This document shows positions 1 through 54,543 of a stretch of DNA of 64,000 bases, in pieces. The notes beneath the pieces are model-generated. The model had not been told where the DNA came from. It was given only the letters and a program-made list of their open reading frames with translations, and did no database searches. The DNA lies in contig CBDCSU010000006.1 of the NCBI GenBank assembly GCA_965221775.1, forward strand, positions 2,368,001-2,432,000, given 5' to 3'. The position numbers and the translations under genes are program-made. Position 1 is the first letter of the stretch; each line of letters begins with the position of its first letter. The DNA comes from Candidatus Latescibacterota bacterium (GTDB lineage Bacteria > Latescibacterota > UBA2968 > UBA8231).

Positions 1-1030
1 CTGCCGGCGGGACATCGGACTGGGAGGATGGCCGCTGGTGAGCCTGGTCGAGGCTCGCGACAAGGCCTTCGAGAACCGGCGGCTCGCCCGCTCGGGCGGG
101 GACCCGCTGGCGGCCAAGCGCAAAGCCAAGATGCCGACCTTCCGGCAGGCGGCGGAGCGGACCTACGAGGCGAACCGGCCCCGCTGGCGCAACGCGAAGG
201 TCGCGGCCAACTGGATGCAGCAGTTGGATCGCCATGCGTTCCAGAGGCTGGGCGACCTGCCGGTTGACCAGATCGGCCGCGAGGATGTGCTCGCCGTCCT
301 GACGCCGATCTGGTCGAGCAAGCCCGAGACGGGCCGTCGCGTAAGGCGGCACATCAAGGCCACGCTGCGCTGGTGTCAGGCGCACGGCCTGGTGGACCAG
401 AACGTGGCCGGAGAGGCCATCGACGGGGCCCTGCCTTCGATGGCGGCGGTTCAGAAGCACTTTCGGGCCTTGCCGTACCAGGAAGTCGCCCAAGCCCTGC
501 AGGTGGTCGCGGGGTCGGGGGCCTCCCCGTCGGCCAAGCTCTGCCTTCGGTTCCTCGTGCTCACGGCCGCGAGGTCCGGGGAATCCCGCGGCGCGACATG
601 GACCGAGATCGACACCGGGGCCCGGGAGTGGCGCATCCCCGCCGACCGGATGAAGGCCGGCGTCGAGCACCGCCAGCCGCTCAACGATGCGGCGATGGCC
701 GTGCTCGAACAGGCGCGGATCCTCGACGATGGGAGCGGGCTGATCTTCCCGTCCCCGACGCGGCGAGGGCAGCCGCTGAGCGATATGTCGCTGACCAAGG
801 TGCTCCGGGACAACGGGCTCGCCGAGCGGACCACCGTCCACGGCTTCCGGTCGGCCTTCCGGGACTGGGCCGCCGAGCGCACGGATACCGATCATGCCGT
901 CATGGAGCTGGCGCTCGCGCACCGAGTCGGTAGCGCCGTGGAGAGGGCCTACGCACGGAGCGACCTGCGCGAGCGGCGCCGGGAGCTGATGGCGCGATGG
1001 GCGGCTTTCCTGGAGCCTGGTGATGGATGA
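1..1030 (+). CDS. P4-like tyrosine integrase with arm-DNA-binding domain (5' end outside window)
   Basis: Frame is open from base 2 (CRRDIGLGGWPLVSLVEAR, arm-binding motif). Catalytic motifs TAARSGE, MKAG.EH, HGFRSAFRDW and LAH...AY are present. Confidence 0.95.
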   Translation, partial: CRRDIGLGGWPLVSLVEARDKAFENRRLARSGGDPLAAKRKAKMPTFRQAAERTYEANRPRWRNAKVAANWMQQLDRHAFQRLGDLPVDQIGREDVLAVLTPIWSSKPETGRRVRRHIKATLRWCQAHGLVDQNVAGEAIDGALPSMAAVQKHFRALPYQEVAQALQVVAGSGASPSAKLCLRFLVLTAARSGESRGATWTEIDTGAREWRIPADRMKAGVEHRQPLNDAAMAVLEQARILDDGSGLIFPSPTRRGQPLSDMSLTKVLRDNGLAERTTVHGFRSAFRDWAAERTDTDHAVMELALAHRVGSAVERAYARSDLRERRRELMARWAAFLEPGDG

Positions 1031-38332: not shown

Positions 38333-38560
38333 TCATCCAACTTGATGCCGTTCAAACAGCAGATCGAGGGCCTCCAGCCCGAGAGCATGGACGGTCGTCT
38401 CGTTCTGGGCGGCGAGCACCTTCAATCGCTTCGCCTGCTCGGGTTCGAGGTACAGGACCGTGGCCTTCTTGCCACGCCGAGACGGGGCGATCTTGGCCTC
38501 GGCCTTCGGCTCGCCAGCGGTCCGCCCGGCGTCTGCGAGGGTTGGCTTAGCTTTGGACAT
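38333..38560 (-). CDS. Ribbon-helix-helix (ParG-like) centromere-binding protein
   Basis: KKATVLYLEPEQAKRLKVLAAQNETTVHALGLEALDLLF; overlaps the parA 3' end. Confidence 0.85.
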   Translation of the reverse strand: MSKAKPTLADAGRTAGEPKAEAKIAPSRRGKKATVLYLEPEQAKRLKVLAAQNETTVHALGLEALDLLFERHQVG

Positions 38561-39183
38561 GAGCCCCTCCTTCCGTCTGAGTCCATCGGTACAAGGCTTC
38601 GGTCTCGGTTGCCGCCAAGGATCGGGGCTCGGCTTCCTGAGCGGTCCTCCCGGCCGTGAACGCCCGGACGTGCGCGACCCGGGCCCCCAGGGTCACCGGA
38701 ACCCGAACTGCCTGGAAGCTCTGAATGGCCGTCGTCGCTTGGGCCGTCCAGTCGCCGCGAGGAGGGACAGCGTTCAGCACCACCGCCGCCGCCGTCTCCG
38801 CGATCCGGCCCACGTCCAGAGTCGCCGGGATGGCCGCCAGATCCACCGCGGACGGTCGACACGGCACGAGCATCAGATCCGCACAACGAGCCGCCTCCAC
38901 CGCCCCGCCGGCCTCTCGAGGAGCCGTGTCGATCACCGCCAAGGAGGCCCCTGCACCCCGGGCCGCATCGAGCACCCGCGCCAGCCGGGGTGGATGAGCC
39001 GTCACCACCGGCGGCGGATCTTCGCCTCGAAGGTCGCCCCAAACCGCCGTCGATCCCTGTTGGGTCCAGGTCGATCACAACAGCGTCGCCACCCGCGAGT
39101 TCGTGCGCCACCGCGAGGCCGACGGCCAAGGTCGTCTTGCCGCTCCCGCCCTTCTGTGATACCAGAGCAATCGTGCGCATCAT
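38547..39183 (-). CDS. parA: Short ParA/ParF partition ATPase; 1-bp insertion near 39059
   Basis: SQKGGSGKTT, IDLDP(Q)GS, IDTAP and LVPCRPS..DL. The two frames join at gacccaacagg. Confidence 0.88.
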
Positions 39184-41246: not shown

Positions 41247-42352
41247 AAGTTCCCTCCCTCCTGCGGGGTGTGAGGAATGGTGGCCCCGGGTTCTTAGGAC
41301 CCCCTACCCCGAACGTCAAGGAACCCCACGGGACCCCCGCGGCCCCGACGCCGCCCGAAACCCCCCGAAATCGCCCGATCCGGCCGGCCCCGAGAATCGC
41401 CCAGGGCGAGCGGAGACGGGCCGCCAGCGCCGGATCGGCCCCGGCCGCGGGTCAGAAAGACGCCCCTCCCCCCCTCCAAGGCCGCCAGGAGCCGCCTCCG
41501 GCGCTCTGACGCCCTCCACCCCCCCAGACCCCCCGCATCAGGCCGGATCTCGCCCCCACGGGGGCCCCGAGGGCCGCCCAGGCCCGGGAACAGGGCCCCC
41601 GCGAGCGGATTCCGCACCGCCCGCGCCACGGCGCCAGCTCCCCCGACTCCCAACACCCGCGGCCCCGCCAGGCGCGCAGACGCCGCCTGAGCGGCTCCTG
41701 GAGGGCGCTGCCGAGGGCCCCGGCGCCCAGGGAGCTACACCACAACCCAAAACTTTGGTGTGAATCGAGGGCGCGGGGCACTTTGCCCCACCCGACCGAC
41801 CGCCGCGGGACCCGCGTTCGATCGGAACCCCCCCCCAGGGCCGGCACCCCGCCCTCGCGTGCCCCCTCGCGCCCGATCCACACGCTCTCGCGCCCTCGCC
41901 CCCGCCGCCGGCCCCGATCCGCGCCCGATCGCACCCTCGCCGTGGGTCCAGGCTGCGCCGATCGGGCCGTTCGAGGCCGCTTGTTACTGCCGACAATCGG
42001 CTGTAGCGCCTGTAACCACCCATCCCCCCCTCGATCCGCCCAACCCTCCTCGCCGGGCGCCGACGTCGTGGCCCGGATGGGATCGCCGCCGCCGGCGAGG
42101 CCATGGCCGCACGTGCCGGGAGGGCGAGTCACCGGCGGCCCTGTCCTCGCCGCTGCCCACTGTCTTGGGGGAGCTGATCGAGGCCGATTGAACCCCCGAT
42201 AAGGGACATTATCGCTGGTTCAAACCCCGGACAGCGATCCCGCCGGCCGGGATGGGGACCCGGTTTCTCCTGTCGGTAGCGGTCATTCCCCGAAGTAACC
42301 ACCCCGCCCCCTCGATCCGCGCACCCTCTCCGAGCCCCGGCGCCACCTGATG

Positions 42353-42427
42353 GCATGATTACCCTGCTAATCATGCTTGACAAAGGCATCCTCGGCGTAT
42401 TATCATGCTCATCATGCTTACTATGAT
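42353..42427 (+). promoter_or_regulatory. Sigma70 promoter of the small-gene array with iterated ATCATGCT operators
   Basis: TTGACA at 42377 and TATTAT/TATCAT -10 candidates. ATCATGCT occurs at 42370, 42402 and 42411, with an inverted copy at 42353. Confidence 0.75.
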
Positions 42428-42474
42428 CGCACACACACCCGATCATCTTACTGCTGAGGCAAGGAGGAATCCCA

Positions 42475-42686
42475 TGAGTGAGTTGACCACCGACCGGGCG
42501 GCGAGGGCCGATGCCGCTGCGGCAGGCTGCCACGTGGTCGAGACGTTGGCCGAGTGCCTGCCCGATGGCTCCGGCTTTCGGACCGTGAGGCGGGTAACCC
42601 GCTTCCGGATAGACAGCAGTCACGGACCCGCTTCGGAGATTCGCGAGGCTGCCGGCGAGGCGCTACGCGATCTGTTAGGAGGCTGA
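42475..42686 (+). CDS. Small hypothetical protein, first gene of the array
   Basis: RBS aaggagg. Confidence 0.6.
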
Positions 42687-42690
42687 GGCC

Positions 42691-43233
42691 ATGTCCAAGA
42701 CCATCCGCACCATCACACCCGAGATGCACGCGGCTCTCGACGCGGACCGTGAGGGCCGGCTGTCTCCGCAGGCTCGGAGCGCCATCGACACCGCCGAGAA
42801 GGACTGGCAGATGGCGAGCCACGCCGCCCACCCCTCGCACTTCACCTTCGACACGGCAGGCGATCGGGAGTTCCTCGTCGCCCGGCGCCGTCGCGACGGT
42901 GCGTTTCGTCGCTACATCACCGTCTGCCACCGGATCGGGCGCAACTACTACCGCCCGTCCTCTCTCCGCAAGCGCGGCCTGAGCCCGATGATGCGTACCG
43001 CCGTGGCGGCGCATGTGCGCGAGGTCCACGAGGAGATCCTGACGGTGGAGGGCACGCCGCCGTCGAGCGCGGAGCTGATGTGCCTCGCCGCCCTGTTCGC
43101 CGCCGGCAACGACGACGGGCAGATCACGCCGGGGTTGGAGGCCATCGCCGCCGAGGCGGCCCGGATCGGCTTCCACACCGCCGACACGTTGGAGACGCGG
43201 CCGGACCCCCGGCTGCCCGAGGAGGCGGCGTGA
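42691..43233 (+). CDS. Hypothetical phage-like protein
   Basis: RBS aggagg; TGATG-coupled to the next gene. Confidence 0.65.
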   Translation: MSKTIRTITPEMHAALDADREGRLSPQARSAIDTAEKDWQMASHAAHPSHFTFDTAGDREFLVARRRRDGAFRRYITVCHRIGRNYYRPSSLRKRGLSPMMRTAVAAHVREVHEEILTVEGTPPSSAELMCLAALFAAGNDDGQITPGLEAIAAEAARIGFHTADTLETRPDPRLPEEAA

Positions 43234-44305
43234 TGGAGTGGACCCTCCGAGAGGTCGCCGGGGTGCTGATGTTCCTCGGCGGCCCCCTCGTCATCGGCCT
43301 GCTCCCCTCGCTCGACCGGTGGTTGGCGCGCCGGCGCGAGAGGAGGGGCTGATGCCCAAGCCCATGATCGACCACGAGGCGCAGATCGTGCGCCCCATCA
43401 TCGACGAGCTCCCCGGTGGGCGCTTCCGGGGCCGGGTCGGGGGCTACCGCTCGACGCTGTTCACCCATGAGGAGGACGCGCAGGACTGGTGCGCCGACAT
43501 GGCTCACGAGGGTCTGCTGTCCGAGGGCGAGGACCCGGAGGACTGGGTTGTGCTGCCGGCCACCGTTCACATGGGAGGGAGCTGATGGCCTACCGTGCCG
43601 GCTTCCGCGCCATCCGCCGGGTGAGCGCCAACCCCACCTACCGGGAGTGCTGCCGCCAGGCTCACCGGACCGTGTGGCAGGCTCTGCGGTGCGATCCGGG
43701 CGCCGATTGGATCGAGTGCCCCCACGGGCGCAAGCACGACACCTGCCACGACTGCTACGCCGAGAGGAGGCGCTGATGGATTGGGCGCAGGTCACCCTGA
43801 TGACCGTGGTGCTTGTCGGCCCGGTCCTCGCCGTCGTGTTCGCCGTGCTGGAGTGGTGGACGTGGTGGCGCGACGAACGGCGGGGGGAGCATCCCCCGCG
43901 CCGGTGCGGGAGGCCGTCATGACCCTTCGCGCCAGGATCGTCGACGTGCGCCGCCGGATCGCCGAGGGGTGCGGGCTGGTAGCCTCGATCGAGGCCGCAT
44001 CCACCACGGACGCCGAGTACAACACCCTCATGGATCTGTGCAACGCCGCCTGTGAGGACGACTACGACGGGCCGGACATGACGGGGGATCAGGCTCTCGC
44101 GATCCTCGCCAAGATGGAGCCCGTCTGGCTCTACACCGTGGTCGAGGCTGAGATGTTCGGCTCCTCGGCCTGGCTGGTGGTGCGCGAGGACGGGGCCGTG
44201 TGCGGCTACCGGCACGGGCTGTATCCGGCCCTCGAGTACGCCGTCGAGCGCATGGAAGCCGACGAGCGCACACGCCACCTGTGGGAGGAAGCCCCTTGCC
44301 GCTGA
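43233..44305 (+). CDS. Five coupled small ORFs (43233-43352, 43352-43585, 43585-43776, 43776-43922, 43919-44305)
   Basis: Each has a TGATG/ATGA overlap and a ggagg RBS. Two are TM peptides and one is Cys-rich. Confidence 0.6.
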
Positions 44306-44359
44306 CGAGTGGGCCGGCCGGCGGGCCGGCTCCGAAATGCCCCTTCGGGGGCATACGGC
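44298..44359 (+). ncRNA. Type I hammerhead ribozyme
   Basis: Stem I gccg/cggc, CUGACGA, stem II closed by G-C (gggccggcc/ggccggctc), GAAA, stem III tgcccc-UUCG-ggggca and AUA cleavage triplet (cut after 44355). Confidence 0.85.
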
Positions 44360-44400
44360 TATCCCGCCGAGAGCACCCCGTATCCCTTCAGGAGGGAACC

Positions 44401-45069
44401 ATGACCACCTTGCAGGACATCCCGACGGCGGCGCGCCTGCGCGAGCTCGCCGCCCACGTGGAGAAGCTGCCCAGGCAGCCGCTGCGCAACGGCTGCTACA
44501 AGCCGTCGCACATGGGCACCGGCAGCCTCTACGCGCCGCCCCGCGGCTTCAACATGAGCACCTACGCCGCCGCTCACGCGGCGCCGGACGGGGGCCGGTG
44601 CAACACGGCGGCCTGCCTCGCCGGCCACGCCTGCTCCCTGTGGACCGATCTGCCGGCCCACAACTGGGACGCCCACCACGGACAGATCGCCCTGGGGCTG
44701 CGAGCCGCCGAGCGCAACTGCCTGTTCATCCCGCAGATCGCCACCCTCCACATGCGGCCCGAGGTGAACGGCACGCTGTCGGAGATCGAGCCGGCCACCG
44801 CCGCCGAGGCGTGCCGCCGGCTCGCCGACATCCGGGGCGCCGAGTACGTGCACGGCGAGCGGTGGGAGCACTGGCCGCAGTTCGCCGGCGCCCACGACAA
44901 CGCCGTGGAGCGCATGCTGACGCGGCGCCTGTGGGGCACCCTGGAGAGCCTGCGCGAGGACGCGGAGCTGTATGACGGCATCCTGTGCCCGACGTGCGGC
45001 GAGGACTTCACGCTCGACCTGGTCTGCCCGGTGTGCGACCTGCGCCGGGTGAGGGGGGCCGGCGGATGA
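44401..45069 (+). CDS. Hypothetical phage protein (paralog of 46222-46764)
   Basis: TAARLRELAAHVE...FNMS.Y...CNTAACLAG, with a C-terminal CxxC pair. Confidence 0.7.
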   Translation: MTTLQDIPTAARLRELAAHVEKLPRQPLRNGCYKPSHMGTGSLYAPPRGFNMSTYAAAHAAPDGGRCNTAACLAGHACSLWTDLPAHNWDAHHGQIALGLRAAERNCLFIPQIATLHMRPEVNGTLSEIEPATAAEACRRLADIRGAEYVHGERWEHWPQFAGAHDNAVERMLTRRLWGTLESLREDAELYDGILCPTCGEDFTLDLVCPVCDLRRVRGAGG

Positions 45070-45272
45070 TCCGGAATCGGAAGCGCCGTCAGCACCTGGA
45101 GCAGTTCGGCATCGACGGCACCGGCACGGAGACCGACCTGTCGGCTCGCGCCGCACGCCGCTACCAGCTGGCGAAGGCCGGCCATCAGTTCGCGTGGCCG
45201 TCCTACCTGTGCGGCGAGGAGCTGCCGTGTGGGATGTGCGACGCCTGCGTTCGAGGGGGGGTGTTGGACTGA
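45066..45272 (+). CDS. Small Cys-rich protein
   Basis: ATGA-coupled; PCGMCDAC. Confidence 0.55.
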   Translation: MIRNRKRRQHLEQFGIDGTGTETDLSARAARRYQLAKAGHQFAWPSYLCGEELPCGMCDACVRGGVLD

Positions 45273-45640
45273 TGGCCATGACCATGACCCCCCTTCGGGC
45301 TCTGCGTGCCGCGCGCCGGCTGCTGACCGACAACCGGAAGTGGTGCCAGGGGGCTTCGGCCCGTGACTACGACGGGCGCGCAACCGACGTGCATGACCCC
45401 CACGCCGTGGCCTGGTGCGCCGGCGGCGCCCTGTGGAAGGTGGTCCCCGGAACCCTGCACGGCATCGACAACGACGTGTGCGATCGCGCCCTCCAGCGGC
45501 TGTGCGAGGCCGCCACGGGGGAGACGGAGGCGAAGGCCGGCGCCGCCAACCTCAACGACGACAGCGACCACGTGGCCGTGCTGGCGATGTACGACAAGGC
45601 CATCCGCTTCGAGGAGTGGGAGGAGGAAATCTACGCATGA
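45272..45640 (+). CDS. DUF6197-like phage protein
   Basis: LRAARRLL...WCQG...WCAGGAL...NDD..H..VLA.YDKAI. Confidence 0.7.
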   Translation: MAMTMTPLRALRAARRLLTDNRKWCQGASARDYDGRATDVHDPHAVAWCAGGALWKVVPGTLHGIDNDVCDRALQRLCEAATGETEAKAGAANLNDDSDHVAVLAMYDKAIRFEEWEEEIYA

Positions 45641-45983
45641 CCACCCTGGAAGCTCTCCGCGCCGCGCGCCGGCTCATCACGGACCCCCGGCACTGGTGCC
45701 GGAGGTCCTCGGCGAGAGAGGCCGACGGCACCAACTGCTCTGTCCACCACCCTGGGGCTCGCAAGTTCTGCGCCGCCGGCGCCCTCTGGAAGGTCACCAA
45801 CAGCTACCTCGGCGCCGAGCGCGAGGACGGCATCTCCGAGGCCGCTTCCCTGCGGCTTGCGAGGCGGCCGGCATGAAGATCGTCGACTTCAACGACGCGG
45901 ACACCACGGACCATGTGGCGGTCCTCGCCGCCTACGACAAGGCCATCCGCTTCGAGGAATGGGAGGAGGAGATCTACGCATGA
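45637..45983 (+). CDS. DUF6197-like tandem paralog, frameshift near 45850
   Basis: Same motifs split over two frames; C-terminus YDKAIRFEEWEEEIYA is identical. Confidence 0.65.
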
Positions 45984-46225
45984 GCACGATTCGCGTCAGC
46001 GTCAGCAGCACCACCGTGGTGCAGATCGAGAACAAGGACGCCGAGCCTCTGCTCTCGATCATGGCGCAGCCCGACAACGCCCGGCCCTTCGTGTTCGTGC
46101 ACGAGGGCGCCGAGACGACGGTCCAGCCGTCCGACAACGGGAAGCAGCTCCACAGCCGCAACGCCACCGGCCACACCGTCGACGGCGGGATCGTCGTCAC
46201 CGTGGAGGAAGGAGACGGCTCGTGA
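45980..46225 (+). CDS. Small beta-rich hypothetical protein
   Basis: ATGA-coupled with RBS ggagga. Confidence 0.6.
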   Translation: MSTIRVSVSSTTVVQIENKDAEPLLSIMAQPDNARPFVFVHEGAETTVQPSDNGKQLHSRNATGHTVDGGIVVTVEEGDGS

Positions 46226-46764
46226 ACTTCCCCACCCACCCCGTCACCGTGGCCCGGCTCCGGGAGTTGGCCGGCCACGTCGAGGAGATGCAGCACCTGC
46301 GCTTGGTCCTGGTCGACGCGCCGCCGGTCGAGGGGGCCGTCGTGTCCACGATCGCGGGGGGTCCCGAGCACTTCGACGCCTTCAACATGTCTCGGTACGC
46401 CGTCGACACCGAGTGCGGCACGGTGGGCTGTCTCGCCGGGCTCGCGTGTGGCAAGTGGGCCGAGGACGCCGACTCGTCGTGGTGGGGGTTCGCCAGCGGC
46501 ATGCGGGCGCTGCGCTTGGACACGCAGAACAAGGAGCAGTGCGAGTGGGCGCAGGCTCTGTTCGCGCCGCCGATGGGCGACATCGAGCTCGAGAGGCTGA
46601 AACCGACGACGGCGGCTCGCGCCTGCCGACGCTTGGCGGGCCTGCTGCACGCGATCGGGCAGTCGGGCCGGCCGTGGCAGTGCCACACGGACGCGGAGAC
46701 GCTCGCCGACGCGCTGTGGGGTCCCGAGGAGATCCTCTATCACGACGAAAGGAGCCCTGTCTGA
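46222..46764 (+). CDS. Hypothetical phage protein (paralog of 44401-45069)
   Basis: TVARLRELAGHVE...FNMSRY...CGTVGCLAG. Confidence 0.7.
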   Translation: MNFPTHPVTVARLRELAGHVEEMQHLRLVLVDAPPVEGAVVSTIAGGPEHFDAFNMSRYAVDTECGTVGCLAGLACGKWAEDADSSWWGFASGMRALRLDTQNKEQCEWAQALFAPPMGDIELERLKPTTAARACRRLAGLLHAIGQSGRPWQCHTDAETLADALWGPEEILYHDERSPV

Positions 46765-47528
46765 TGCAGATTCGCAGCCTCAAGCCAGTGCGCGGCGTGC
46801 TGGTGCGGATCCATACGCACCTGCGCAACGAGCCGAGTGCCGAGGACATCCGCACGTCGATCTCCGCCGACGAGTGCCGGCTCACGGTCTCGCATTCGGT
46901 CAACGATCCGGTGCCGCACGTCGACGACCTGCTGAGGATGTGGGCCGAGCACTACGTGCGGTGCCACAAGGTGGGCGTCACCGGCCTCGAGTACCGCATG
47001 CTGCCCGAGGAGGGCAGCGACCTTCTCATGGCCGTCCGCTTCGACGGCGATCCTTCTGACTGAAAGGAGCCCCATGACCACCTTCGATCCCCCCACCAAG
47101 TCCGACGCCGTGGTGCTGCGCGAGTTCTTCCGGCGCGACGGGCAGACCCTCGACCAGTTCCACGAGGAGCTGAAGGCTGGAGCCGGCCGACAAGCAGGAG
47201 TTGGCCGCGCTGGCGCGGGAGGAGCTGGCCGCGTGATCGCCAAGGACGTACAGGCCGTGCTGAACTCCGCCCGGCGCTGGCTGGAGGCCGCCGAGGCGGA
47301 CGACGCCGACGCGATGGCGGAGGCCGACGAGGACCTGCACCAGTGCATGGAGGAGGCGCAGCGATGACCTGTCACTGCTGCCACGCCGAGACCCCCGATC
47401 CCCTGCACCGGGTCCTCGACGGCGAGGTGAGGCACGTCTGCGAGCCGTGCGCGGAGAGCATCGACGAGGCGTTGGTCCTCGACGGGCTCAGTGCCAACCC
47501 CGCTGATCCCGTCCTGAAGGGCGGGTAG
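46764..47528 (+). CDS. Three small ORFs (46764-47063, 47074-47367, 47364-47528)
   Basis: Coupled starts with RBS; the last is a CxxC...CxxC zinc-finger peptide. Confidence 0.55.
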
Positions 47529-47591
47529 GTGCCGAAACGCGGGGGCCGACCGGCCCCCGCTTCGACGGGCCGCTCCCGTCCTGACGATGGC
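47508..47591 (+). ncRNA. Variant/degenerate hammerhead ribozyme
   Basis: gcc-GAAA-c-10bp stem III-UUC-gacggg. Stem I can pair with upstream cccgtc-CUGAAG (A9 missing) or downstream cccgtc-CUGACGA-u-ggc. There is a 15.2/16.2 mismatch. Confidence 0.55.
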
Positions 47592-47636
47592 TTCGCCGGG
47601 GTCGCTCCCCGGCCCACATCCCACTACGGAGGGAAC

Positions 47637-48272
47637 ATGCACGACATCGAGATCGCCCCGATCCGGCCGGAGAAGTGGCCGGACGACGCGAGGGCCTGGA
47701 CGCGGTCCACGGCCGATTTCCGGCTCAACGAGCGCCTGGGGTCCGCCCTGGCGCTGACCGTGGCCGGCGAGGACTGGTGGGTGGACGGCGCCGCCTGCTT
47801 CAAGGGGACGTGCCCGAAGGGCTACCAGAAGCGGCTGATGGCCGGCCGGCGCTGGCTCGATAACCCGGACCCGGCCGGCAAGGAGGCCGCGGAGAAGATG
47901 GTCCTGAGGCTGATGAACGAGGAGCTGTCGGACCCGCGCCGGTTCGTGCCCGCGTTCACCCGGATCAAGCCGCACCACTCGGGCCGCGGCGAGCAGCACA
48001 TCGACGTGTTCGTGCCGAAGGGGGCCACGAACCTGATCAAGTGGCGCCCCTTCGAGGCCCGCTACGTCGGGTTCGCGCTGCGCCGCTTCCGGGGCTGCCG
48101 GTTCACCCTCGGCAACAAGGGCGACACCCTGATCGTGCGCGACGACACCGGGGCGATGGTGGGCGCCATCATGCGGATGTCGATCCCGGCCGACGAGCGC
48201 CGGGGCGGGAAGCGCAAGCGCAGCGTCAACGGGGTCGTGCCGGAGCCGACGGAGGCCGCGCAGGCCGCGTAG
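47637..48272 (+). CDS. Hypothetical phage-like protein
   Basis: RBS ggaggg and high-GC3 codon usage. Confidence 0.65.
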   Translation: MHDIEIAPIRPEKWPDDARAWTRSTADFRLNERLGSALALTVAGEDWWVDGAACFKGTCPKGYQKRLMAGRRWLDNPDPAGKEAAEKMVLRLMNEELSDPRRFVPAFTRIKPHHSGRGEQHIDVFVPKGATNLIKWRPFEARYVGFALRRFRGCRFTLGNKGDTLIVRDDTGAMVGAIMRMSIPADERRGGKRKRSVNGVVPEPTEAAQAA

Positions 48273-48354
48273 AGCCCTTCAGGAGACCGAAATCGGGGGC
48301 GGGCCTGGGTGCCCGCCCTCATTCCCTTCTCTCACGAACCAAGGAGACGGAACA

Positions 48355-48594
48355 GTGAACAAGGAGCGACGGGACCGGATCAGGGGGCTGCGCGACGAGC
48401 TCAACGCGATCCGGACGCAGATCGACGACATCGAGGCGGAGGAGCGGGAGGCGTTCGACAACCTCCCCGAGAGTCTGCAGTACGGCGAGCGCGGCGAGAC
48501 CCTGAGCGCCGCCGCCGACAGCCTCTCCGAGGCGTCCGAACAGATGGACGCGGCCGCCACCCAGCTGGAGGAAGTCATCGGGGAGGGGAGCTGA
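48355..48594 (+). CDS. Conserved small phage helical protein
   Basis: MNKERRDRI...EEREAFDNLPESLQYGERGE resembles a widespread phage family (from recall). Confidence 0.75.
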   Translation: MNKERRDRIRGLRDELNAIRTQIDDIEAEEREAFDNLPESLQYGERGETLSAAADSLSEASEQMDAAATQLEEVIGEGS

Positions 48595-48595
48595 C

Positions 48596-49378
48596 ATGCC
48601 GCAATACTACTTCCCCGCGCCCCTGGCCGAGGAGTTCACCGGCACCCCGGACACCACCGACATCATCTCGATCTACAAGGTGACCGGCGCGGCGCACGCG
48701 CCCTACTGGCAGGCGCAGGACTCGCGCGGATTCGTGAAGGCGGAGTGGACCCCGCCGGCGCCGCTGCGCGAGGACCTGCCGGAGACCGAGCGACGGAATC
48801 TGCTGGTGGCGTGGGCGCAAGCCTACGAGCGCAGCGACCTGGTGGAGACGCCGCCGACCGGGCAGCCCGCTTGGGTGTTCGTGCATCTGCACAGCGTCAC
48901 CGCGCCGGGCAACCCCTTCTACATGTACGCGGCAGTGAGGCCGAAGGCGGGACAGGCGTTCGAGCACATCCTGCGCTACGCCTCCTACGGCCGTCCGCAG
49001 GACTGGGACTGGCTGTTCCGCGACCTGGAGGACGGCGAGGAGCATAAGCGCGGCGAGCGGCCCCTGCAGCCCGAGTTGGCCCGGCTGCCGGAGCGCGATC
49101 TCGACGCCGAGAGCAAGACCGCGCTGCCCGACGGGTCCTCCATGACCGTCCTGGCTTCGTGGCCCAACGGCTACCGGTGCTACGAGAAGCAGACCGGCAA
49201 CGAGCGCTACGAGTGGCCGGACGGGAGCGCCATCACCGTCCAGGGGCAGGTCGCTTGGGACTTCGGGTTCTACCGCGACCGGCTCGCCGATCAGGCCGTG
49301 ATCGAGGCATGCGGCGACGACGTGGCCCCGATGTTCGCGTGGCCGGGAGAGGTGGCCGTGGCTGGCGAGCTGACCTGA
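48596..49378 (+). CDS. Hypothetical protein (paralog of the IS-interrupted gene 49484/52357-52979)
   Basis: Shared LA.EFTG.P, AWVFV.L, YAAVRP.AG.AF.H.L, DWDWL, DGSAI and AVIEAC. Confidence 0.75.
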   Translation: MPQYYFPAPLAEEFTGTPDTTDIISIYKVTGAAHAPYWQAQDSRGFVKAEWTPPAPLREDLPETERRNLLVAWAQAYERSDLVETPPTGQPAWVFVHLHSVTAPGNPFYMYAAVRPKAGQAFEHILRYASYGRPQDWDWLFRDLEDGEEHKRGERPLQPELARLPERDLDAESKTALPDGSSMTVLASWPNGYRCYEKQTGNERYEWPDGSAITVQGQVAWDFGFYRDRLADQAVIEACGDDVAPMFAWPGEVAVAGELT

Positions 49379-49475
49379 CGAACAACGGCGGCTCCAAGCC
49401 GTCCTGAGCGCCGGAAACGGGCGGGCACCCCGGGTGCCCGCCCTCACCAACCTCTCTCACAACCCGCAAAGGACC
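49375..49475 (+). repeat. Conserved structured intergenic motif (copies at ~48285-48345 partial, 49375-49475, 52981-53085)
   Basis: CTGACGA..acggcggct.caagccgtc.tgagcgccGGAAA-gggcggg.acc/ggtgcccgccc-TC..ctctcac..aagga. Confidence 0.85.
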
Positions 49476-49713
49476 TGGAAATCATGGCGATCCATTTGGG
49501 AATTATATACGAGTTTAGCCTTGGGCCTCATGGGAACCCGTCGTACATACGGGCGCGGACTGCTTCCGCCTGTGCGGTATGTCGGGTCGCCCCTCGAATA
49601 GAACAGCCTTCGGGCGAATAGGGGGGAACTTCCCGCGAAAGCGAGGCAGTCCGCAAACGGCCCGGCGCCACGCGGGAGCGCCGGCCCCACCCCCTCACCC
49701 AAGGAGGCGGACT

Positions 49714-50252
49714 TTGCGGACTGCCCTGATCTTCTCAACCCTGCTTCTCATGGCGTGCCAGGGCCGCCCGGCCCCGTAGGACCCTCAGGCCCTCCGTCCA
49801 GAGCCAAGGCGACGACCGATCAACAGGAGACGGCCGAGTGTATCGTGAATGAGATCACGATCACCGGCGACAACGTGCAGGTGCATGGGCTGTCCGTGGC
49901 GGACTCGGTGTACTACGCACGAGACACCCTGGAAGTCACGTCGGCGTTCTCCCTGATCACCTTCGACCTCAACTACTCCACGGACATCGACCAAGGGTCC
50001 CGGAAGGGCTGGGCCTACTACGATGACGCCATCGTCGCGGATGAAGTCCAGGGGGTTTTTCTGGCGGCCACGGGAGGCTACCAGGACCCGAGCGAATGGC
50101 AGCCGTTCAACCTGCTGGCAGCAGAGGAGGCCGGGTCCGACGAGACGCCGGAGTATGAGCTTGAAGACGGGGAGATCTACATCTCAGACCCGGACGATGT
50201 ACTGGCGTCCGAGTACGACGGGACACCGGGGCGTACAGGCGCTTCGTGGTAA
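49714..50252 (+). CDS. Collagen-like lipoprotein passenger (frameshift near 49762)
   Basis: RBS aaggagg, LLLMAC lipobox, then GPVGPSGP in another frame. Confidence 0.55.
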
Positions 50253-50261
50253 CGATCCTGT

Positions 50262-50453
50262 CTATCCCGGCCCAGTGAGTTCTTCACGCGGGTCAGGCGC
50301 CTTGTCAGCGTAGGCGTCTGACCCGCGCTTCAGGTACCGCCAGTTCTTCTTGGGCGGCCCCGCCATGCAGGCCCGGGCGATCTCCTCCGGTGGAGCCGGG
50401 ATCTTCTCCGGCATCACGTGCTTGGGTGGGCGGCCGCGCTTGCGCTTCGACAT
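50262..50453 (-). CDS. Small IS1595-associated protein
   Basis: MPEKIPAPPEEIARACMAGPPKKNW resembles short ORFs recalled next to IS1595. Confidence 0.55.
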   Translation of the reverse strand: MSKRKRGRPPKHVMPEKIPAPPEEIARACMAGPPKKNWRYLKRGSDAYADKAPDPREELTGPG

Positions 50454-50474
50454 GATCCAGAATCCCCCCCCTTC

Positions 50475-50747
50475 TTATCGGCGGCGGTAGATGTCGTGCG
50501 GGCCAACGGCTAGGGCTTTGGCTACTTCGGCATCACCGACCTCGAAAATGAATCTGAACTTGTCATTGAGCCTAACGCCGTGGCAACCCTTCCATGGACT
50601 TTCTAGGGTTTCCAGGTTTCGCCCTGGCGGAACCACCCCACAGATCAACTCGGACATGGCTGAAGCCAACTCAGTTTTCATTCTGGGGGGAAGAGATCGG
50701 ACGGCTTTTTCGAACTTTTTTGGTATATCGAAGGAGGATACCTGCAT
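50475..50747 (-). CDS. RelE/ParE-superfamily toxin
   Basis: 90 aa; FEKAVRSLP...HGVRLNDKFRFIF...AVGPHDIY. Confidence 0.7.
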   Translation of the reverse strand: MQVSSFDIPKKFEKAVRSLPPRMKTELASAMSELICGVVPPGRNLETLESPWKGCHGVRLNDKFRFIFEVGDAEVAKALAVGPHDIYRRR

Positions 50748-50748
50748 A

Positions 50749-51216
50749 TCACTCCTTCGTTTCGAGCAGTCGGAGAAGCTCCTCCCCGCTGTGCACTCGG
50801 TGTGCAACAGGGGAGGCCCGGCCGTCATGGATCATGATGGCCCAACGCAGCTCTTGTAGAGTTTCGGCGAAGTGACCAAGCACGAGAACCATGGATCTCT
50901 TTTCGTGCGGTGACATCTCTCGCGGGACTCGACCCAGTTGCTTCACGGAAGGCCCTCCGACCAGACGATCACGCTCTTCGCAGAAGTAATCCTCAGCCTT
51001 CTTCAGCAGGTCCTTTGCGGCATCGTCAGGGTCCAATTCTTGCTCAGAAGGACATGCCTCTACGAGTCTCATAAACCCATTTGCGAAGTTGTCCATCATC
51101 TGCAGAAGGAGTGCGTATTCGTTCTGATTCTGATAGAACCAGCGAACCGCATGGACAACGTGGTGCACGCTGTCCTTATCCATCATGGGTGAGTCATGAG
51201 CTACGGCCATGCTCAT
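50749..51216 (-). CDS. Putative cognate antitoxin
   Basis: Lies directly upstream of the toxin and is lower in GC; C-terminus HSGEELLRLL. Confidence 0.55.
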   Translation of the reverse strand: MSMAVAHDSPMMDKDSVHHVVHAVRWFYQNQNEYALLLQMMDNFANGFMRLVEACPSEQELDPDDAAKDLLKKAEDYFCEERDRLVGGPSVKQLGRVPREMSPHEKRSMVLVLGHFAETLQELRWAIMIHDGRASPVAHRVHSGEELLRLLETKE

Positions 51217-51320
51217 GGAGAGGGCTCCTCATCGAGGGGTTTTCAGGGTCCCATGGTACGGACGGAAACAGCCGAGCACCAAGCTGCACAAAGTAGATCT
51301 GCCCGGATGGTCACCCCCGG

Positions 51321-52300
51321 TCAGATCGCCTCACGCCGCCAAGTGGCGGACGGCTTGATCAGGTCCTTGTACCGCAGCCTCTTGAAGGCCCCTGCCCGGA
51401 CCATGCCGCGCATCTGGTCGATGGTGTCCTGGGGCCGCTGGTTGTGCCGGCCCTCGAACTCCGCGACGTAGCGCGGCAGGTGCTTGGGGCTCATCCCATG
51501 GTAGGTGCCGTGGTACCCGCGCTTCAGCATGGACCAGAAGCTCTCCAGGCCGTTGGTGTGCGCTTGGCCGTCCACCCAAGCGCCGACGGAGTGCTTGCAT
51601 GCTTGCAGGTCTGGCGTTTCCGGAGGCCCTCGTAGGACGCGTTCTCGTCAGTGTACTTGTCGGCGTCCGGCTCCACGTGGGCCGCGACGAAGCCGTGCAA
51701 GCTGGCCTTGGTGCCGTCCGGCAGCACCCTGGCGCGAACCTCATTGGTCTGGCGGTCCTTGGCGCCTACCACGATGGCCTTGCCCACGGCCCCACGTCCG
51801 GCATGGAGCTTCTTCGCGGCGTGCTTGTTGCCCTCCAAGCCGCCCACGTACGTCTCATCCAACTCGACCGGCCCGTCCATCGGCTCAGGGTCTCGGGTGG
51901 AGTCGGCCCACGTCTCCCGGATGCGGTGCGCCAAGTGCCACGCGGTCTTCTGAGTGACGCCCAGGTCGCGGTGCAGTTTCATGCTGGACGTGCCCTTCAA
52001 GCCGGTAGCCATCAGGTAGAACGCCCAGGCCCAAACCTTGAAGCCCAGCTTGGAGCCCTGCATGACGGTCCCGGTCTTCACCGAGAAGTGCCGCCGGCAG
52101 CCCCGGCAACGGTAGGGCTGCGGCTTCCGGCTCGCCACGGTCTGGATATTCAACGAACCACAGTGGGGGCAGGCAACTCCGTCCGGCCACCTGGTCTGCG
52201 CGAACCACGCCTCCGCGGCCTCGTCCGTAGGGAACTTCTCTCCCAACTCGATCAGGGTCAACCCCTCGCGGTAGTGCTTGCCGGGTGCGCTCTGTGCCAT
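51321..52300 (-). CDS. IS1595 (ISXO2-like) DDE transposase, frameshifted near 51600
   Basis: RWPDGVACPHCGS zinc ribbon, VELDETYVGG, YTDE, HTNGLESFW and KHLPRYVAEF. Confidence 0.92.
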
Positions 52301-52356
52301 GCTCCATGCTCTCCGATTTATGGAAGCAATTTAGCCAGGGCGCAGGCGTCAAGGGG

Positions 52357-52979
52357 GCCCCCCACCTCGCCGGCGAGTTCACCGGCTACCCGGAGGAAAC
52401 GGAGTTGGTGCTGGTGCGCAGCCTCAGCACCCTGCCCAACACCTGGGAGGCCATCGAAACGATCCCCCGGCCCTACGGGATGCTCGCGTGCGCCACGCTG
52501 ACGGCCGAGGGGGGGTGGAGCCCTTCACCGAGGACGACCGCAAGGACCTGCTGACCAAGTGGGCGGCAGAGTTCGACCGGCTGCGCGGCGAGGATGTGGC
52601 CCCGGTGGCCGCCTGGGTGTTCGTGGAACTGGCGCGACGGGGCACGACGCGCTACTACGCAGCGGTTCGACCGAGCGCCGGCGATGCCTTCGCCCACGTA
52701 CTCCACCACCGCTGCCACTACCGGCACGAGGACTGGGACTGGCTCCACGTCGAGAACGGCAACCGCCTGCCCGGCGTGCCGAAGCCGACCCGCTCCCCGG
52801 ACAGTGCCTACGATCGCTTCGAGTGGGGAGACGGCTCCGCCATCGTGGCCGACAGCTTCACGTGGTGGTTCGGCTTCCACTGGGGTCGCCTCACCGAGGA
52901 GGCCGTGATCGAAGCCTGCAGGGAGGTGGCCCCGGAGTGGGCCAACCCGGCGGAGGTCCACCTGCCGAGGGCAAGCTGA
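52357..52979 (+). pseudogene. 3' part of IS-interrupted paralog of 48596-49378
   Basis: Homologous motifs; additional frameshift near 52510. Confidence 0.7.
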
Positions 52980-53094
52980 CCTGACGAAGGGAGACGGCGG
53001 CTTCAAGCCGTCTGAGCGCCGGAAAGGGGCGGGTACCTCTGGGTGCCCGCCCTCGCTTTACCCTCTCACCACTCTGGAAAGGACCCAACCCCCT

Positions 53095-53977
53095 ATGAAC
53101 CCGCTTCGCACTACACCCCCGGCCGGCGGCGGTTCCGCACGCCCTGCCCGCCCCCGTGATCGTGGGCGGGCTGTTGGGGAACTGCGGTTTCCCGACATGT
53201 CGATCCGCCGACAGGAGGAACCCGAGTTGATGGTCCGCGACCACGCCCGGTTCTTTTCCGGGCCGTTCGCCATGACGGCCGGCTGCCACTACTGCCGCCA
53301 CACCGAGGTCGTGCGCCGCCATCCCCGCCCGGGTCGAGGCTGGGGATGGCGGGCGCGCAACGAGCTGACCCGCCGGATGCGACGGCACCTGGAGACCGAT
53401 CATCCGGAGCGCATCCGCCAGCAGAAGGAGACCCCATGAGCAAGCGCAAGGCCGCCCAGCGGCAGCGGTGCTACCACCTGACCGTCTGCGGGCTCAATGA
53501 CCGGCCCCACCGGGAGCGGTTCCGCTCCGACCCAGAAACCTACCAAGGGAAGGCCGTGGACCTGACCCGCGACTTGCTGCGCAACCGCTGGGGCCGGCTC
53601 TCCGTCACCAAGCCCGATGGCTCCACCTGGGACACGGACGTGCCCGGGAGCGGCCAGTGAGCACGCTACACCTGATCGACCACTACTCGCGCCGCTACCG
53701 CGCCAAGGAAGGCATCGGCGGCTCGTGGACCCGGCTGGACTGCCACGCCTGCGGCGAGCTGATCGAGACGGGCTCGAAGGTGATCCTCGAGAGCCGCCCC
53801 ATGGGCAAGGCTGGCAAGCCGAACGCCTGGCACCCGGCCTGCTTCGCCGGCCAGCAGCGGGAGGCGGCCCTGGAGCGGCACCGGGCCGAGCACAACGAAT
53901 ACCCGGAGTGGATTCGCCACCAGTTCGACGAGAAGCCGCAAAGAGGGAAGCCCGACCGGGTAGCGAGTGAGCGATAG
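53095..53977 (+). CDS. Three small ORFs ending the array (53095/53197-53439, 53436-53660, 53657-53977)
   Basis: Coupled starts; CxxC...H motifs (CHYC, CHAC...WHPAC). Confidence 0.6.
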
Positions 53978-54174
53978 GTCAGCCAGCCCCGAGCTGGAGC
54001 CACGGAATCGCCCCCTGGCGACAGACGAACCGGCACCCCTAAGCGCCCCCTCACAGTAGGGCCGCCCGAAAGCCGGGAGCCGGGCCACGAGATCGCCGCG
54101 ACCTGGGCAGCTTGCGCGGTTCCCGGCACGTCCCATAGATTCTCTCACGCCTCCCTGAAAGGAGCACTCCCACA

Positions 54175-54543
54175 GTGAGCGCCGCGAACGCCAAGGACCA
54201 GGTGAAGGCCTTGGAACACGAACAGATGGACCGCCTCACAGAGGCCCATGGGTTGATCGCTCAGCGCGAGGCTCTCCACAAGGGCTTGGTGTATTTCCCG
54301 AACCACCGTGGCACCATCACTCAACACATTGATGACATCGAGGCGCGCTTCAACCAGCTACGCAAAGGGAGCCGCCATGGGATGGCGTTGATGAAAACAG
54401 TCATAGAAGACTTACCTTTCTCCCCAGACCAAGCCGAGCTCATGGCGAACTACGTGCTGTTCATCGAAGGGCGGCAGTTGCCTGCGCTGCCCCCGCTGCC
54501 CAAGGGGGAGCTCCCCAAGAGCCACCGCCAGGGACGCGGCTGA
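54175..54543 (+). CDS. Hypothetical protein
   Basis: RBS aaggag and GTG start. Confidence 0.6.
   Translation: MSAANAKDQVKALEHEQMDRLTEAHGLIAQREALHKGLVYFPNHRGTITQHIDDIEARFNQLRKGSRHGMALMKTVIEDLPFSPDQAELMANYVLFIEGRQLPALPPLPKGELPKSHRQGRG

Follow-up and report, generated by a model that had tools for sequence, protein, structure and literature searches.

Stem-loops placed between cistrons, such as REP-type elements and stabiliser hairpins, stabilise upstream mRNA or attenuate read-through in bacterial operons. In cluster K mycobacteriophages, the start-associated sequences are a short conserved box that precedes several start codons by a fixed, short distance. [quoted passage not shown] 2011, PMC3088659); according to that paper, segmentation of a long transcript into shorter mRNAs has already been proposed for these clusters, and disruption of the loop-tail pseudoknot lowers the cleavage rate more than 100-fold at 0.5 mM Mg.

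We describe here a locus that recalls each of these systems in part. The window, i.e. the whole stretch of DNA that was analysed, is 64,000 nucleotides long and belongs to a genome of 5.36 Mb. Our preferred reading, to which we assign a probability of roughly 60%, is that it contains a small-gene operon of a phage-like element, with hammerhead motifs in the first two of its large intergenic gaps and a separate module in the other three.

A small-gene array with five large gaps

The main features of the array are as follows.

42353-42427, plus strand: promoter region, with TTGACA-18-TATCAT at 42377-42406
42474-53977, plus strand: array of about 24 small ORFs, all in the same orientation and most of them ORFans
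44306-44400: gap 1, 95 nt
47529-47627: gap 2, 99 nt
48273-48354: gap 3, 82 nt
49379-49483: gap 4, 105 nt
52980-53094: gap 5, 115 nt
about 49478-52340: inserted block breaking the array, with an IS1595-type transposase and a HigB-like gene
49581-49674: sub-threshold sRNA-Xcc1-like match in the inserted block
49845-50252, plus strand: gene in the inserted block
50475-50828, minus strand: HigB-like gene in the inserted block
51321-52300, minus strand: frameshifted IS1595-family transposase in the inserted block

The ORF reading gives 24 plus-strand ORFs between 42474 and 53977, and 15 of the 23 gene junctions overlap by 1 nt (TGATG) or 4 nt (ATGA or GTGA); the initial annotation, which had described a co-oriented array of small genes chained by overlaps behind one promoter, is confirmed on this point, as are the coordinates of the five gaps over 15 nt that it had listed apart from the IS insertion. 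Two DUF6197 genes, one phrog_4068 gene and two paralog pairs (44401/46222 and 48596/52488) are found among the array genes. The promoter is preceded by a palindrome with 9-bp arms (42353-42376), its region carries ATCATGCT-type repeats, and the three promoter-like sites detected within 42000-54500 (0.7 expected) are all confined to 42355-42427. The array probably represents an accessory-gene operon with a single sigma-70-type promoter and operator-like repeats, on an island that looks decayed, to judge by a truncated paralog, the split of one DUF6197 gene and the IS insertion. Just beyond the end of the array stretch at 53977 there is a sixth gap (53978-54174).

As had been noted at the outset, all five gaps contain GAAA followed by a hairpin and then U-H, and four of the five contain CTGANGA; the hairpin is strong and GC-rich and comes 0-2 nt after GAAA, and CTGANGA each time reads CTGACGA (44302, 47581, 49375 and 52981). 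A TGA stop codon overlaps or adjoins three of these four copies; across the whole window CTGANGA shows no enrichment (34 found against 36.3 expected). Since gaps 4 and 5 are paralogous and gap 3 has the same hairpin, the five cases amount to about three independent ones.

Such elements could also be understood without catalysis: the GC stem-loops would serve as leaky terminators, as sites of RNase processing or as 3'-end stabilisers, and the hammerhead likeness of gaps 1 and 2 an inactive relic or partly chance. We regard this explanation, in which no gap holds an active ribozyme, as possible yet rather unlikely, and the evidence below bears on it in both directions. The hairpins themselves speak against it, as an intrinsic terminator scan was negative for all five gaps and none of the hairpins is followed by a canonical U-tract (the tails are UAC, UUC, UCAUUCC, UCACC and UCGCUUU); rho-independent termination was rejected for the gap hairpins on these grounds. 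An AAA or TTT flank, moreover, accompanies just 22 of the 462 perfect hairpins of at least 9 bp in the genome. The decay of the island, in turn, fits the absence of activity.

Hammerhead motifs in gaps 1 and 2

Hammerheads were sought with a descriptor specifying three helices, exact CUGANGA, GAA, A15.1-U16.1 and H17, with at most one defect per helix and two in total; these tolerances were chosen after both candidates had been seen. On both strands of the 64-kb window it matches exactly two places, gaps 1 and 2, and among its 10 matches in the 5.36-Mb genome only these two have at least 19 stem pairs. Of 539 decoy cores matched in composition and scanned in the same way, only three gave one or more matches in the array region and one gave two or more, which argues against chance in the array, whereas across the genome the true core has the same number of matches (10) as the decoys on average (9.7). 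The check with Infernal and Rfam suggested initially turned out negative: neither the window nor the whole genome contains a site that attains the gathering score of any Rfam hammerhead family. This favours the absence of active ribozymes, as does the caution in PMC6155905 that relaxed searches with minimal hammerhead motifs return mostly false positives. The two matches break down as follows.

44296-44361, plus strand: gap 1 type I hammerhead candidate with a complete core, found by the descriptor
44298-44301 paired with 44356-44359, plus 44296/44361: stem I
44302-44308: core CUGACGA, holding the TGA stop of the upstream gene
44309-44333: stem II, 10 bp, U44310 bulged, loop GGCG
44334-44337: GAAA
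44337-44354: stem III, 7 bp, UUCG loop
after A44355: predicted cut
47531-47591, plus strand: gap 2 type II hammerhead motif, from the descriptor, the Rfam alignment and the IMG/VR subclass
47531-47533 (GCC) paired with 47589-47591 (GGC): stem II, 3 bp, U47588 extra
47534-47536: GAA
47537-47562: stem III, 10 bp, internal mismatch C47538/U47561
after C47563: predicted cut
47564-47580: stem I, 6 bp, 5-nt loop
47581-47587: core CUGACGA
47596-47612, plus strand: additional GC hairpin (CCGGGG/CCCCGG) downstream of the gap 2 motif and upstream of the RBS of the gene at 47628

Gap 1 agrees with a type I hammerhead that has a full core and a putative cleavage site: all core bases are present and follow the type I order, the junctions are flush, and G10.1-C11.1, A15.1-U16.1 and A as H17 are in place. 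Its stem I, located in the last codons of the upstream gene, consists of just 4 bp, a U/U mismatch and 1 bp. The bulged U after G10.1 also occurs in a natural, otherwise perfect type I motif (n=1, locus L182), and the GGCG of loop II is complementary to CGCC in the 3' tail (44365-68), with which it could pair. Even with the cutoff relaxed to E<=10, an Rfam search of 151 nt around gap 1 gave no hammerhead match. Contigs from runs X6 and X7 lose homology to this region at 44289, and the X7 contig regains it at 44321 after 199 other letters; the 5' third of the motif is therefore without demonstrable conservation.

In gap 2 the conserved core is likewise complete (C3 U4 G5 A6 N7 G8 A9, G12 A13 A14, and an H17 that is not G) and in type II order. 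Three helices meet there, of which stems I and III end in loops and stem II is open. The element orders of both gaps are exactly the permutations that a hammerhead permits, with flush junctions, which again counts against a mere stem-loop. The Rfam model Hammerhead_II (RF02276) aligns to gap 2 over its full length (model positions 1-66) and keeps the core in register, at 16.5 bits against a gathering score of 37; genome-wide such a score is noise, two unrelated sites reaching 20.2 and 17.1 bits.

Gap 2 matches, as a diverged member, an abundant phage type II subclass with the hallmark GCC-GAAAC ... CUGACGA-U-GGC. At least 120 stretches of natural phage sequence came up in an IMG/VR scan for GCCGAAAC..TC..CTGACGATGGC, and the hallmark shared with them counts against a mere stem-loop in gap 2; 81 of the 85 unique sequences among the matches listed have a clean type II parse. 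In an independent sample of 68 clean type II motifs, collected with CUGAUGA and with stem II unconstrained, GCC plus UGGC is found in 16 and U after A9 in 19. Because the natural subclass shares the 3-bp GCC/GGC stem II and the extra U after A9, these oddities of gap 2 belong to the subclass hallmark. Three clustered motifs at one natural locus (L033) fall below the gathering score of 37 (33.6 and 26.4 bits, the third not listed), so that the Hammerhead_II model under-scores GC-rich phage hammerheads. A custom model, R1, gives gap 2 a score of 31.7 bits (E 9e-7), a value of little weight and partly circular, the training sequences having been chosen by strings derived from gap 2.

Other properties of gap 2 point to impairment. 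A15.1-U16.1 is present, but C15.2 faces U16.2 and is unpaired, whereas 15.2-16.2 is paired in all 81 parsed members among the matches listed (GUC 78, GUA 2, GUU 1), none of which has the mismatch. No loop-tail pseudoknot was found in gap 2: the longest complementarity between loop I and the 3' tail is 3 nt, against at least 4 in 68 of 80 natural members, in what is a weak test since 43% of shuffled controls also reach 4 nt. Mismatch and missing pseudoknot argue against full activity of gap 2 and agree with the absence of active ribozymes. The folding energies point the same way, the hammerhead-compatible fold being less favourable than the minimum-free-energy fold by 4.7 kcal/mol in gap 1 (-41.4 against -46.1) and by 12.2 kcal/mol in gap 2 (-53.7 against -65.9).

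We nevertheless prefer the reading with hammerhead motifs in gaps 1 and 2, whose geometry and likeness to natural phage hammerheads are a matter of observation. If active, they would cleave the polycistronic transcript at two positions, A44355 and C47563, in each case after the nucleotide named; every upstream mRNA segment would then have stable GC hairpins and a 2',3'-cyclic phosphate at its 3' end, and the downstream segments would start with a 5'-OH located 45 nt (gap 1) and 64 nt (gap 2) ahead of the start codon. Cleavage, and any effect on stability or stoichiometry, are what we infer from this arrangement.

A repeated module in gaps 3-5

Gaps 3-5 contain a different element, consisting of a long GC hairpin, a CTCTCAC (CUCUCAC) leader and an AAGGA RBS.

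48286-48334, plus strand: gap 3 copy, with CCGAAA, a hairpin at 48294-48319 and a TCTCTCAC leader; no CUGANGA
49375-49477, plus strand: gap 4 copy, with CUGACGA at 49375-81, which contains the stop codon
49387-49403: gap 4 hairpin a
49414-49417: gap 4 GAAA
49419-49443: gap 4 hairpin b, perfect, 11 bp
49452-49460: gap 4 CTCTCTCAC, then an AAAGGA RBS-like box
52981-53094, plus strand: gap 5 copy, paralog of gap 4, with CUGACGA at 52981-87, hairpin a and GAAA
about 53026-53052: gap 5 hairpin b
53061-53069: gap 5 CCCTCTCAC, then the RBS

The module has three copies in the 5.36 Mb, all confined to this array; YTCTCAC followed 5-12 nt on by AAGGA occurs in each of gaps 3-5 and once more at 54148-54170. 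It most likely serves as a non-catalytic RNA punctuation, i.e. a 3'-end stabiliser or leaky terminator combined with a shared translation leader. As hammerheads, gaps 3-5 were rejected, having neither a descriptor match nor a stem I. Between A9 and the nearest helix on the stem II side there are 4 or 7 unpaired nucleotides, and an alternative helix leaves about 10 extra nucleotides ahead of GAAA; none of the three gaps has A15.1-U16.1 closure with a paired 15.2-16.2, and none gives a hammerhead match in Rfam at E<=10. Since CUGACGA and GAAA occur in gaps 4 and 5 without hammerhead geometry, these words may have another cause here, and their presence outside that geometry in gaps 3-5 is a further point for the absence of active ribozymes throughout the array.

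Improbable, in our estimation, is that the module of gaps 3-5 is a catalytically dead hammerhead descendant, or that gap 2 is active despite its mismatch. In the first case, the module would have kept the order CUGACGA, hairpin, GAAA, hairpin, U-H while losing the junction, to be reused as punctuation and leader, and three stages would stand side by side in a single operon, with an intact ribozyme in gap 1, an impaired one in gap 2 and exapted ones in gaps 3-5.

A role of the gap elements chiefly as DNA, be it as sites of recombination and cassette exchange or as protein operators, seems very unlikely. Hairpin b of gaps 4 and 5 is indeed a near-perfect 11-12-bp palindrome, duplicated genes flank these two gaps, and the gene content of related contigs changes exactly at module edges. 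Three different sequence contexts precede the gap 2 module in contigs from runs X5-X7, with homology beginning each time at the G of GCC-GAAAC, stem III kept and its loop varying. This would weakly favour gap modules as homology points for cassette exchange; a constant left edge behind changing contexts is also expected from ordinary mosaic recombination at gene boundaries. Against a DNA-level role, stem pairing between module copies is retained through a C-to-U change giving G-U, which is relevant only in RNA, the elements without exception share the orientation of the genes and are fused to RBS leaders, neither an integron-type integrase nor attC boxes were seen, and the closest tyrosine recombinase gene lies at 38-1030.

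The initial annotation had placed a hammerhead-core RNA in every gap, which the descriptor upholds for gaps 1 and 2 and which fails for gaps 3-5, where no junction forms; that every gap carries a hammerhead is not supported, and functional ribozymes cutting the transcript into five or six modules can practically be dismissed, even though GAAA-hairpin-UH recurs in 5/5 gaps and CUGACGA in 4/5 (it is absent from gap 3) and the order in gaps 4 and 5 resembles type I.

Relation to prophage hammerheads, stabiliser hairpins and start-associated sequences

The preferred reading, with hammerhead motifs in gaps 1 and 2 and a separate module in gaps 3-5, brings the array close to the prophage clusters as presented in PMC3088659. 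In both cases types I and II occupy intercistronic spacers between co-oriented small genes of unassigned function in an integrated mobile element, and the proposed role is transcript processing. Unlike those clusters, the array has only two motifs, neither of which reaches Rfam thresholds; one of them (gap 2) combines the 15.2/16.2 mismatch with the lack of a pseudoknot, the other (gap 1) has its stem I and core overlapping the end of a coding sequence, and the remaining gaps are filled by an unrelated repeat module. With the phage subclass of RF02276 that is delineated here from IMG/VR, gap 2 shares the junction strings, their order, the 6-bp stem I and the long stem III, but it differs by U16.2 in place of G, by a loop I without a complement in the 3' tail and by its 16.5 bits against 37.

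Both the gaps 3-5 module and the hairpins of gaps 1 and 2 resemble REP-type and stabiliser hairpins in being stable GC stem-loops right after stop codons, with no U-tract; the module differs from them in its restriction to this array (3 copies in 5.36 Mb) and in its fusion to a CUCUCAC-AAGGA leader. The YTCTCAC box followed by AAGGA before the starts, in gaps 3-5 and at 54148-54170, is also reminiscent of the start-associated sequences of cluster K, from which it differs in sequence, host and the attached long hairpin. As hammerhead clusters in prophages have been known since 2011, the pair in gaps 1 and 2 would be a further example of a known pattern, accompanied here by an uncharacterised repeat module.

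The small-gene array and its surroundings

With ORF starts set from sequence reading and a translation check, the array comprises 24 plus-strand ORFs in 42474-53977, and 15 of its 23 junctions are TGATG (1-nt) or ATGA/GTGA (4-nt) overlaps, in keeping with the initial annotation, which had described a chain of co-oriented small genes behind one promoter. The GC3 frame plot indicates a single coding strand across 42474-53977, an inserted block (~49478-52340) excepted. Promoter-like sites are confined to 42355-42427 (three found versus 0.7 expected), the best being TTGACA-18-TATCAT at 42377-42406. Internal promoters in the gaps were rejected, since the promoter scan returned no site there. A palindrome with 9-bp arms, GCATGATTA..TAATCATGC, lies at 42353-42376 immediately before the -35 box, and ATCATGCT-type repeats extend over the -10 region (42340-42430); together they resemble a set of repressor operators. 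An ORF in divergent orientation (41538-42104, minus strand) has no family match.

The encoded proteins are nearly all ORFans: among the 29 scanned, the only Pfam assignments are DUF6197 (two genes), a HigB-like toxin domain and parts of an IS1595 transposase, and PHROGs contributes phrog_4068. The DUF6197 genes are tandem paralogs (45272-45983), the second of which is divided into ORFs 45637-45876 and 45873-45983 joined by an ATGA overlap, and is thus either frameshifted or deliberately split. On the opposite strand, the inserted block encodes a HigB-like protein and a frameshifted IS1595-type transposase. It parts two paralogs, 48596-49378 and the 5'-truncated 52488-52979, each of which is followed by a copy of the same gap element. 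Within a non-coding stretch of ~450 nt in this block, upstream of the gene at 49845-50252, the full Rfam sRNA-Xcc1 model gives a sub-threshold match (49581-49674, plus strand; 34.3 bits versus a gathering score of 53; E 0.0068 in a 12.5-kb search). Mobile-element genes found upstream of the array are listed below; they are interspersed with host-type genes (a TonB-dependent receptor and WD40/PD40 proteins), and the setting of the array looks like a mosaic of mobile-element remnants and not like a complete prophage.

Mobile-element genes upstream of the array
38-1030, plus strand, tyrosine integrase
32590-34764, minus strand, primase-like gene
38547-39008, minus strand, ParA-like fragment

Hammerhead candidates in the large gaps

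The only large intercistronic gaps are the five already pointed out:

Large gaps of the array
44306-44400, gap 1, 95 nt
47529-47627, gap 2, 99 nt
48273-48354, gap 3, 82 nt
49379-49483, gap 4, 105 nt
52980-53094, gap 5, 115 nt

The motif words attributed to them are present. GAAA, followed after 0-2 nt by a strong GC hairpin and U-H, occurs in 5/5 gaps, which amount to about three independent cases because a single module recurs in gaps 3, 4 and 5. GAAA ahead of a hairpin is rare in this genome: AAA lies within 6 nt 5' of only nine of the 462 perfect hairpins (stem of at least 9 bp), gaps 2 and 4 being among these nine. CUGANGA is found in four of the five gaps, every copy reading CTGACGA; across the window, CTGANGA is not enriched (34 observed versus 36.3 expected). 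For three of the four CTGACGA copies, a TGA stop codon lies within or next to the motif, and its presence at the stop of two of ~24 genes is unusual, not extreme, given 12 such cases among 2605 confident ORF ends genome-wide.

The further claim that every large gap carries a hammerhead-core RNA is not supported: hammerhead motifs are present in two of the five gaps. Our descriptor called for CUGANGA and GAA without mismatch, pairing of A15.1 with U16.1, H17 other than G, and three helices that join the core flush; it tolerated no more than one defect in any helix and no more than two overall. Exactly two matches were found on both strands of the window, in gaps 1 and 2, and gaps 3-5 fail its geometry.

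Descriptor matches in the window
44297-44360, gap 1, type I, stems of 5, 10 and 7 bp
47531-47590, gap 2, type II, stems of 6, 3 and 10 bp

The whole 5.36-Mb genome contains 10 matches, and 539 decoy cores of the same composition give a mean genome count of 9.7, so that genome-wide enrichment is absent. The array region is matched by three of the 539 decoys and matched twice by one, odds that are optimistic by some factor because the descriptor tolerances were picked after the candidates had been seen. The two array matches are the only ones with the true core to reach at least 19 stem pairs. The proposed check against Rfam came out negative, with no hammerhead match in the window at gathering thresholds and none listed at E<=10 in a permissive scan of 42000-54500.

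Gap 1 has a full set of core bases with all junctions flush, as follows:

Elements of the gap 1 type I motif
Stem I: GCCG/CGGC, then a U/U mismatch, then one pair
Core: CUGACGA
Stem II: G10.1-C11.1 closing a 10-bp helix, with U10.2 bulged and a GGCG loop
GAAA, then stem III: 7 bp, UUCG loop, A15.1-U16.1
Cleavage-site base: H17 = A

CGCC in the 3' tail (44365-68) is complementary to the GGCG of loop II. Against the motif stand the position of stem I, which falls within the last codons of the upstream gene, with the stop codon of that gene inside the core; the fold energy, which is 4.7 kcal/mol less favourable for the hammerhead than for the minimum-free-energy fold; and a 151-nt Rfam search of gap 1 that listed no hammerhead at E<=10. 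An IMG/VR scan with CTGACGAGTGG..CCGAAA returned 62 stretches, mostly chance matches in coding sequence, none of these with comparable stems. The scan also yielded one clean natural type I hammerhead, in IMG/VR contig 3300009418_003088 (stems of 6, 5 and 9 bp; GUC site), that has a bulged U directly after G10.1, as in gap 1; the Rfam type I search for natural comparators matched none of five hammerhead-rich viral records. We are moderately confident that gap 1 holds a real type I motif, for which cleavage is predicted.

Gap 2 is a different case. When it is searched alone, its alignment to Rfam Hammerhead_II spans the entire model and keeps the core in register, at only 16.5 bits versus a gathering score of 37; unrelated genome sites score 20.2 and 17.1 bits, and by the curated model gap 2 is therefore noise. 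A 16-mer from gap 2 retrieved 12 IMG/VR stretches, including a viral contig of 60 kb in which three type II hammerheads lie within ~1.1 kb, and a pattern fixing only GCCGAAAC, TC and CTGACGATGGC retrieved at least 120, with a clean type II parse in 81 of the 85 unique sequences among the matches listed. A stem II of 3 bp (GCC/GGC) and an additional U behind A9, which had looked like defects, are on this comparison of sequences the hallmark of an abundant natural subclass. A second IMG/VR sample, taken with CUGAUGA and stem II unconstrained, tests this hallmark without circularity: GCC and UGGC occur together in 16 of 68 clean motifs, and the U after A9 in 19 of 68. According to the 2011 account of prophage hammerheads, stem II is frequently just two pairs (PMC3088659).

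A custom covariance model built from 55 natural members of this subclass gives gap 2 31.7 bits (with an optimistic E of 9e-7; next window match 12.8 bits), which is a consistency check only, because the training set was selected by gap 2 strings and the test is circular for gap 2. Run over all 76 genomes of the order, this model picks up one true hammerhead (genome G073, 51.4 bits) besides the match in the window. Five other matches (23.7-28.5 bits, in four genomes) were judged false because of broken cores, hence the optimism of its E-values. We are fairly confident that gap 2 descends from the phage type II family.

The catalytic activity of the gap 2 candidate is doubtful. C15.2 stands opposite U16.2, a position that is paired in 81/81 natural members among the matches listed. 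The 5-nt loop I has just 3 complementary nt in the 3' tail; complementarity of at least 4 nt is found in 68 of 80 natural members among the matches listed, a weak test since 43% of shuffled controls also reach 4. Disruption of this pseudoknot between loop and tail is described in the 2011 study as lowering the rate more than 100-fold at 0.5 mM Mg (PMC3088659). For gap 2, the minimum-free-energy fold has the end of the upstream gene paired with stem I, and the fold compatible with a hammerhead lies 12.2 kcal/mol higher.

The repeat module of gaps 3-5

Gaps 3-5 have no stem I partner, leave 4 or 7 unpaired nt from A9 to the nearest helix closing on G12, and have no proper 15.1/16.1-15.2/16.2 closure; in gap 3, CUGANGA is absent. 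What they share is a module of constant order: CCG(G)AAA, a long hairpin GGGCGGGYACC..GGUGCCCGCCC, U-C, ~8-10 nt, YTCTCAC, 5-12 nt and an AAGGA-type RBS. The 5.36-Mb genome holds three copies, all within the array, and a C-to-U stem change between copies retains pairing as G-U. Gaps 4 and 5 carry in addition an upstream CUGACGA and a second hairpin. GCTGACCTGACGAA is common to both paralog ends (49370-49383 and 52974-52990), with the stop supplied by a different TGA in a different frame; thus, the conserved non-coding module starts inside the gene ends. The leader TCTCTCAC...AAAGGA is found again before the gene at 54175, and YTCTCAC followed after 5-12 nt by (A)AAGGA precedes four start codons (48327-48350, 49453-49477, 53062-53085 and 54148-54174). 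This leader presumably resembles the start-associated sequences of some phages.

We read the module as a non-catalytic RNA punctuation with a shared leader, and it may be a hammerhead descendant. That the hairpins are terminators of minus-strand transcription, as the hairpin followed by UUUC on that strand could suggest, is possible but unsupported, and the array is without minus-strand genes for them to serve. The module has no U-tract, and the terminator scan found no site in any gap. Identity with integron attC sites was rejected because R'/R'' boxes are absent and an integron integrase is not nearby.

Relatives and known systems

The array is nearly an orphan. Among 5.8 billion proteins, a single homolog was found for each of two array genes, at 95% identity for the 47628 gene and at 68% for the 44401 gene. 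A phage DNA collection queried with 42400-49500 gave no match, and JGI metagenome contigs searched with one protein and the gap 2 pattern gave nothing. In IMG/VR, the first of two protein queries found one distant locus and the second none. Searches by DNA and protein of 41 relatives and of all 76 genomes of the order detected the array nowhere except as one distant version (contig C156 of genome G004; 30-40% amino-acid identity), which is without a descriptor match.

The public runs listed for the locus include no RNA run. Related contigs, taken as assembled contigs only, came from public sequencing runs X5-X8; among them, a 13-kb contig in X7 matches 47550-48643 at about 93% identity. They lack the 47364 gene, and three different upstream contexts all join the gap 2 module at one base, the G of GCC-GAAAC, so that the left edge of the module coincides with the 5' strand of stem II. 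The stem III loop varies (GACC, UUCG or UCCG) and the stem is retained; one C inserted after 47592 is among the differences listed. At gap 1 the alignment ends at 44289 and in one contig restarts at 44321 with 199 other letters between, so that conservation of the 5' third of this motif could not be shown, which also counts against gap 1.

For the three type II hammerheads of the viral contig mentioned above (IMG/VR locus L033, contig 3300011115_000619, minus strand of the locus), Rfam Hammerhead_II gives 33.6 bits, 26.4 bits and no listed match, all below the gathering score of 37. GC-rich phage type II motifs that have long stems and the extra U behind A9 are thus overlooked or scored too low by curated Rfam models, and scans at gathering scores consequently undercount them.

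To our knowledge, the purpose of hammerheads that cut polycistronic accessory-gene transcripts is still unsettled. If both motifs cleave, the array would be another chromosomal case in which phage-type hammerheads cut such a transcript. One operon here has hammerhead motifs and a separate, array-specific hairpin-leader module at equivalent positions, which would let ribozyme and non-ribozyme punctuation be compared directly. These additions are modest and do not open a new kind of system. Mixed-type hammerhead clusters flanking prophage genes were described in 2011 (PMC3088659), and a 2017 review notes the persistent link with phages and cautions against relaxed motif searches (PMC6155905). 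Relative to these prophage clusters, the minor twist here is that one operon combines a probably impaired motif with a separate repeat module.
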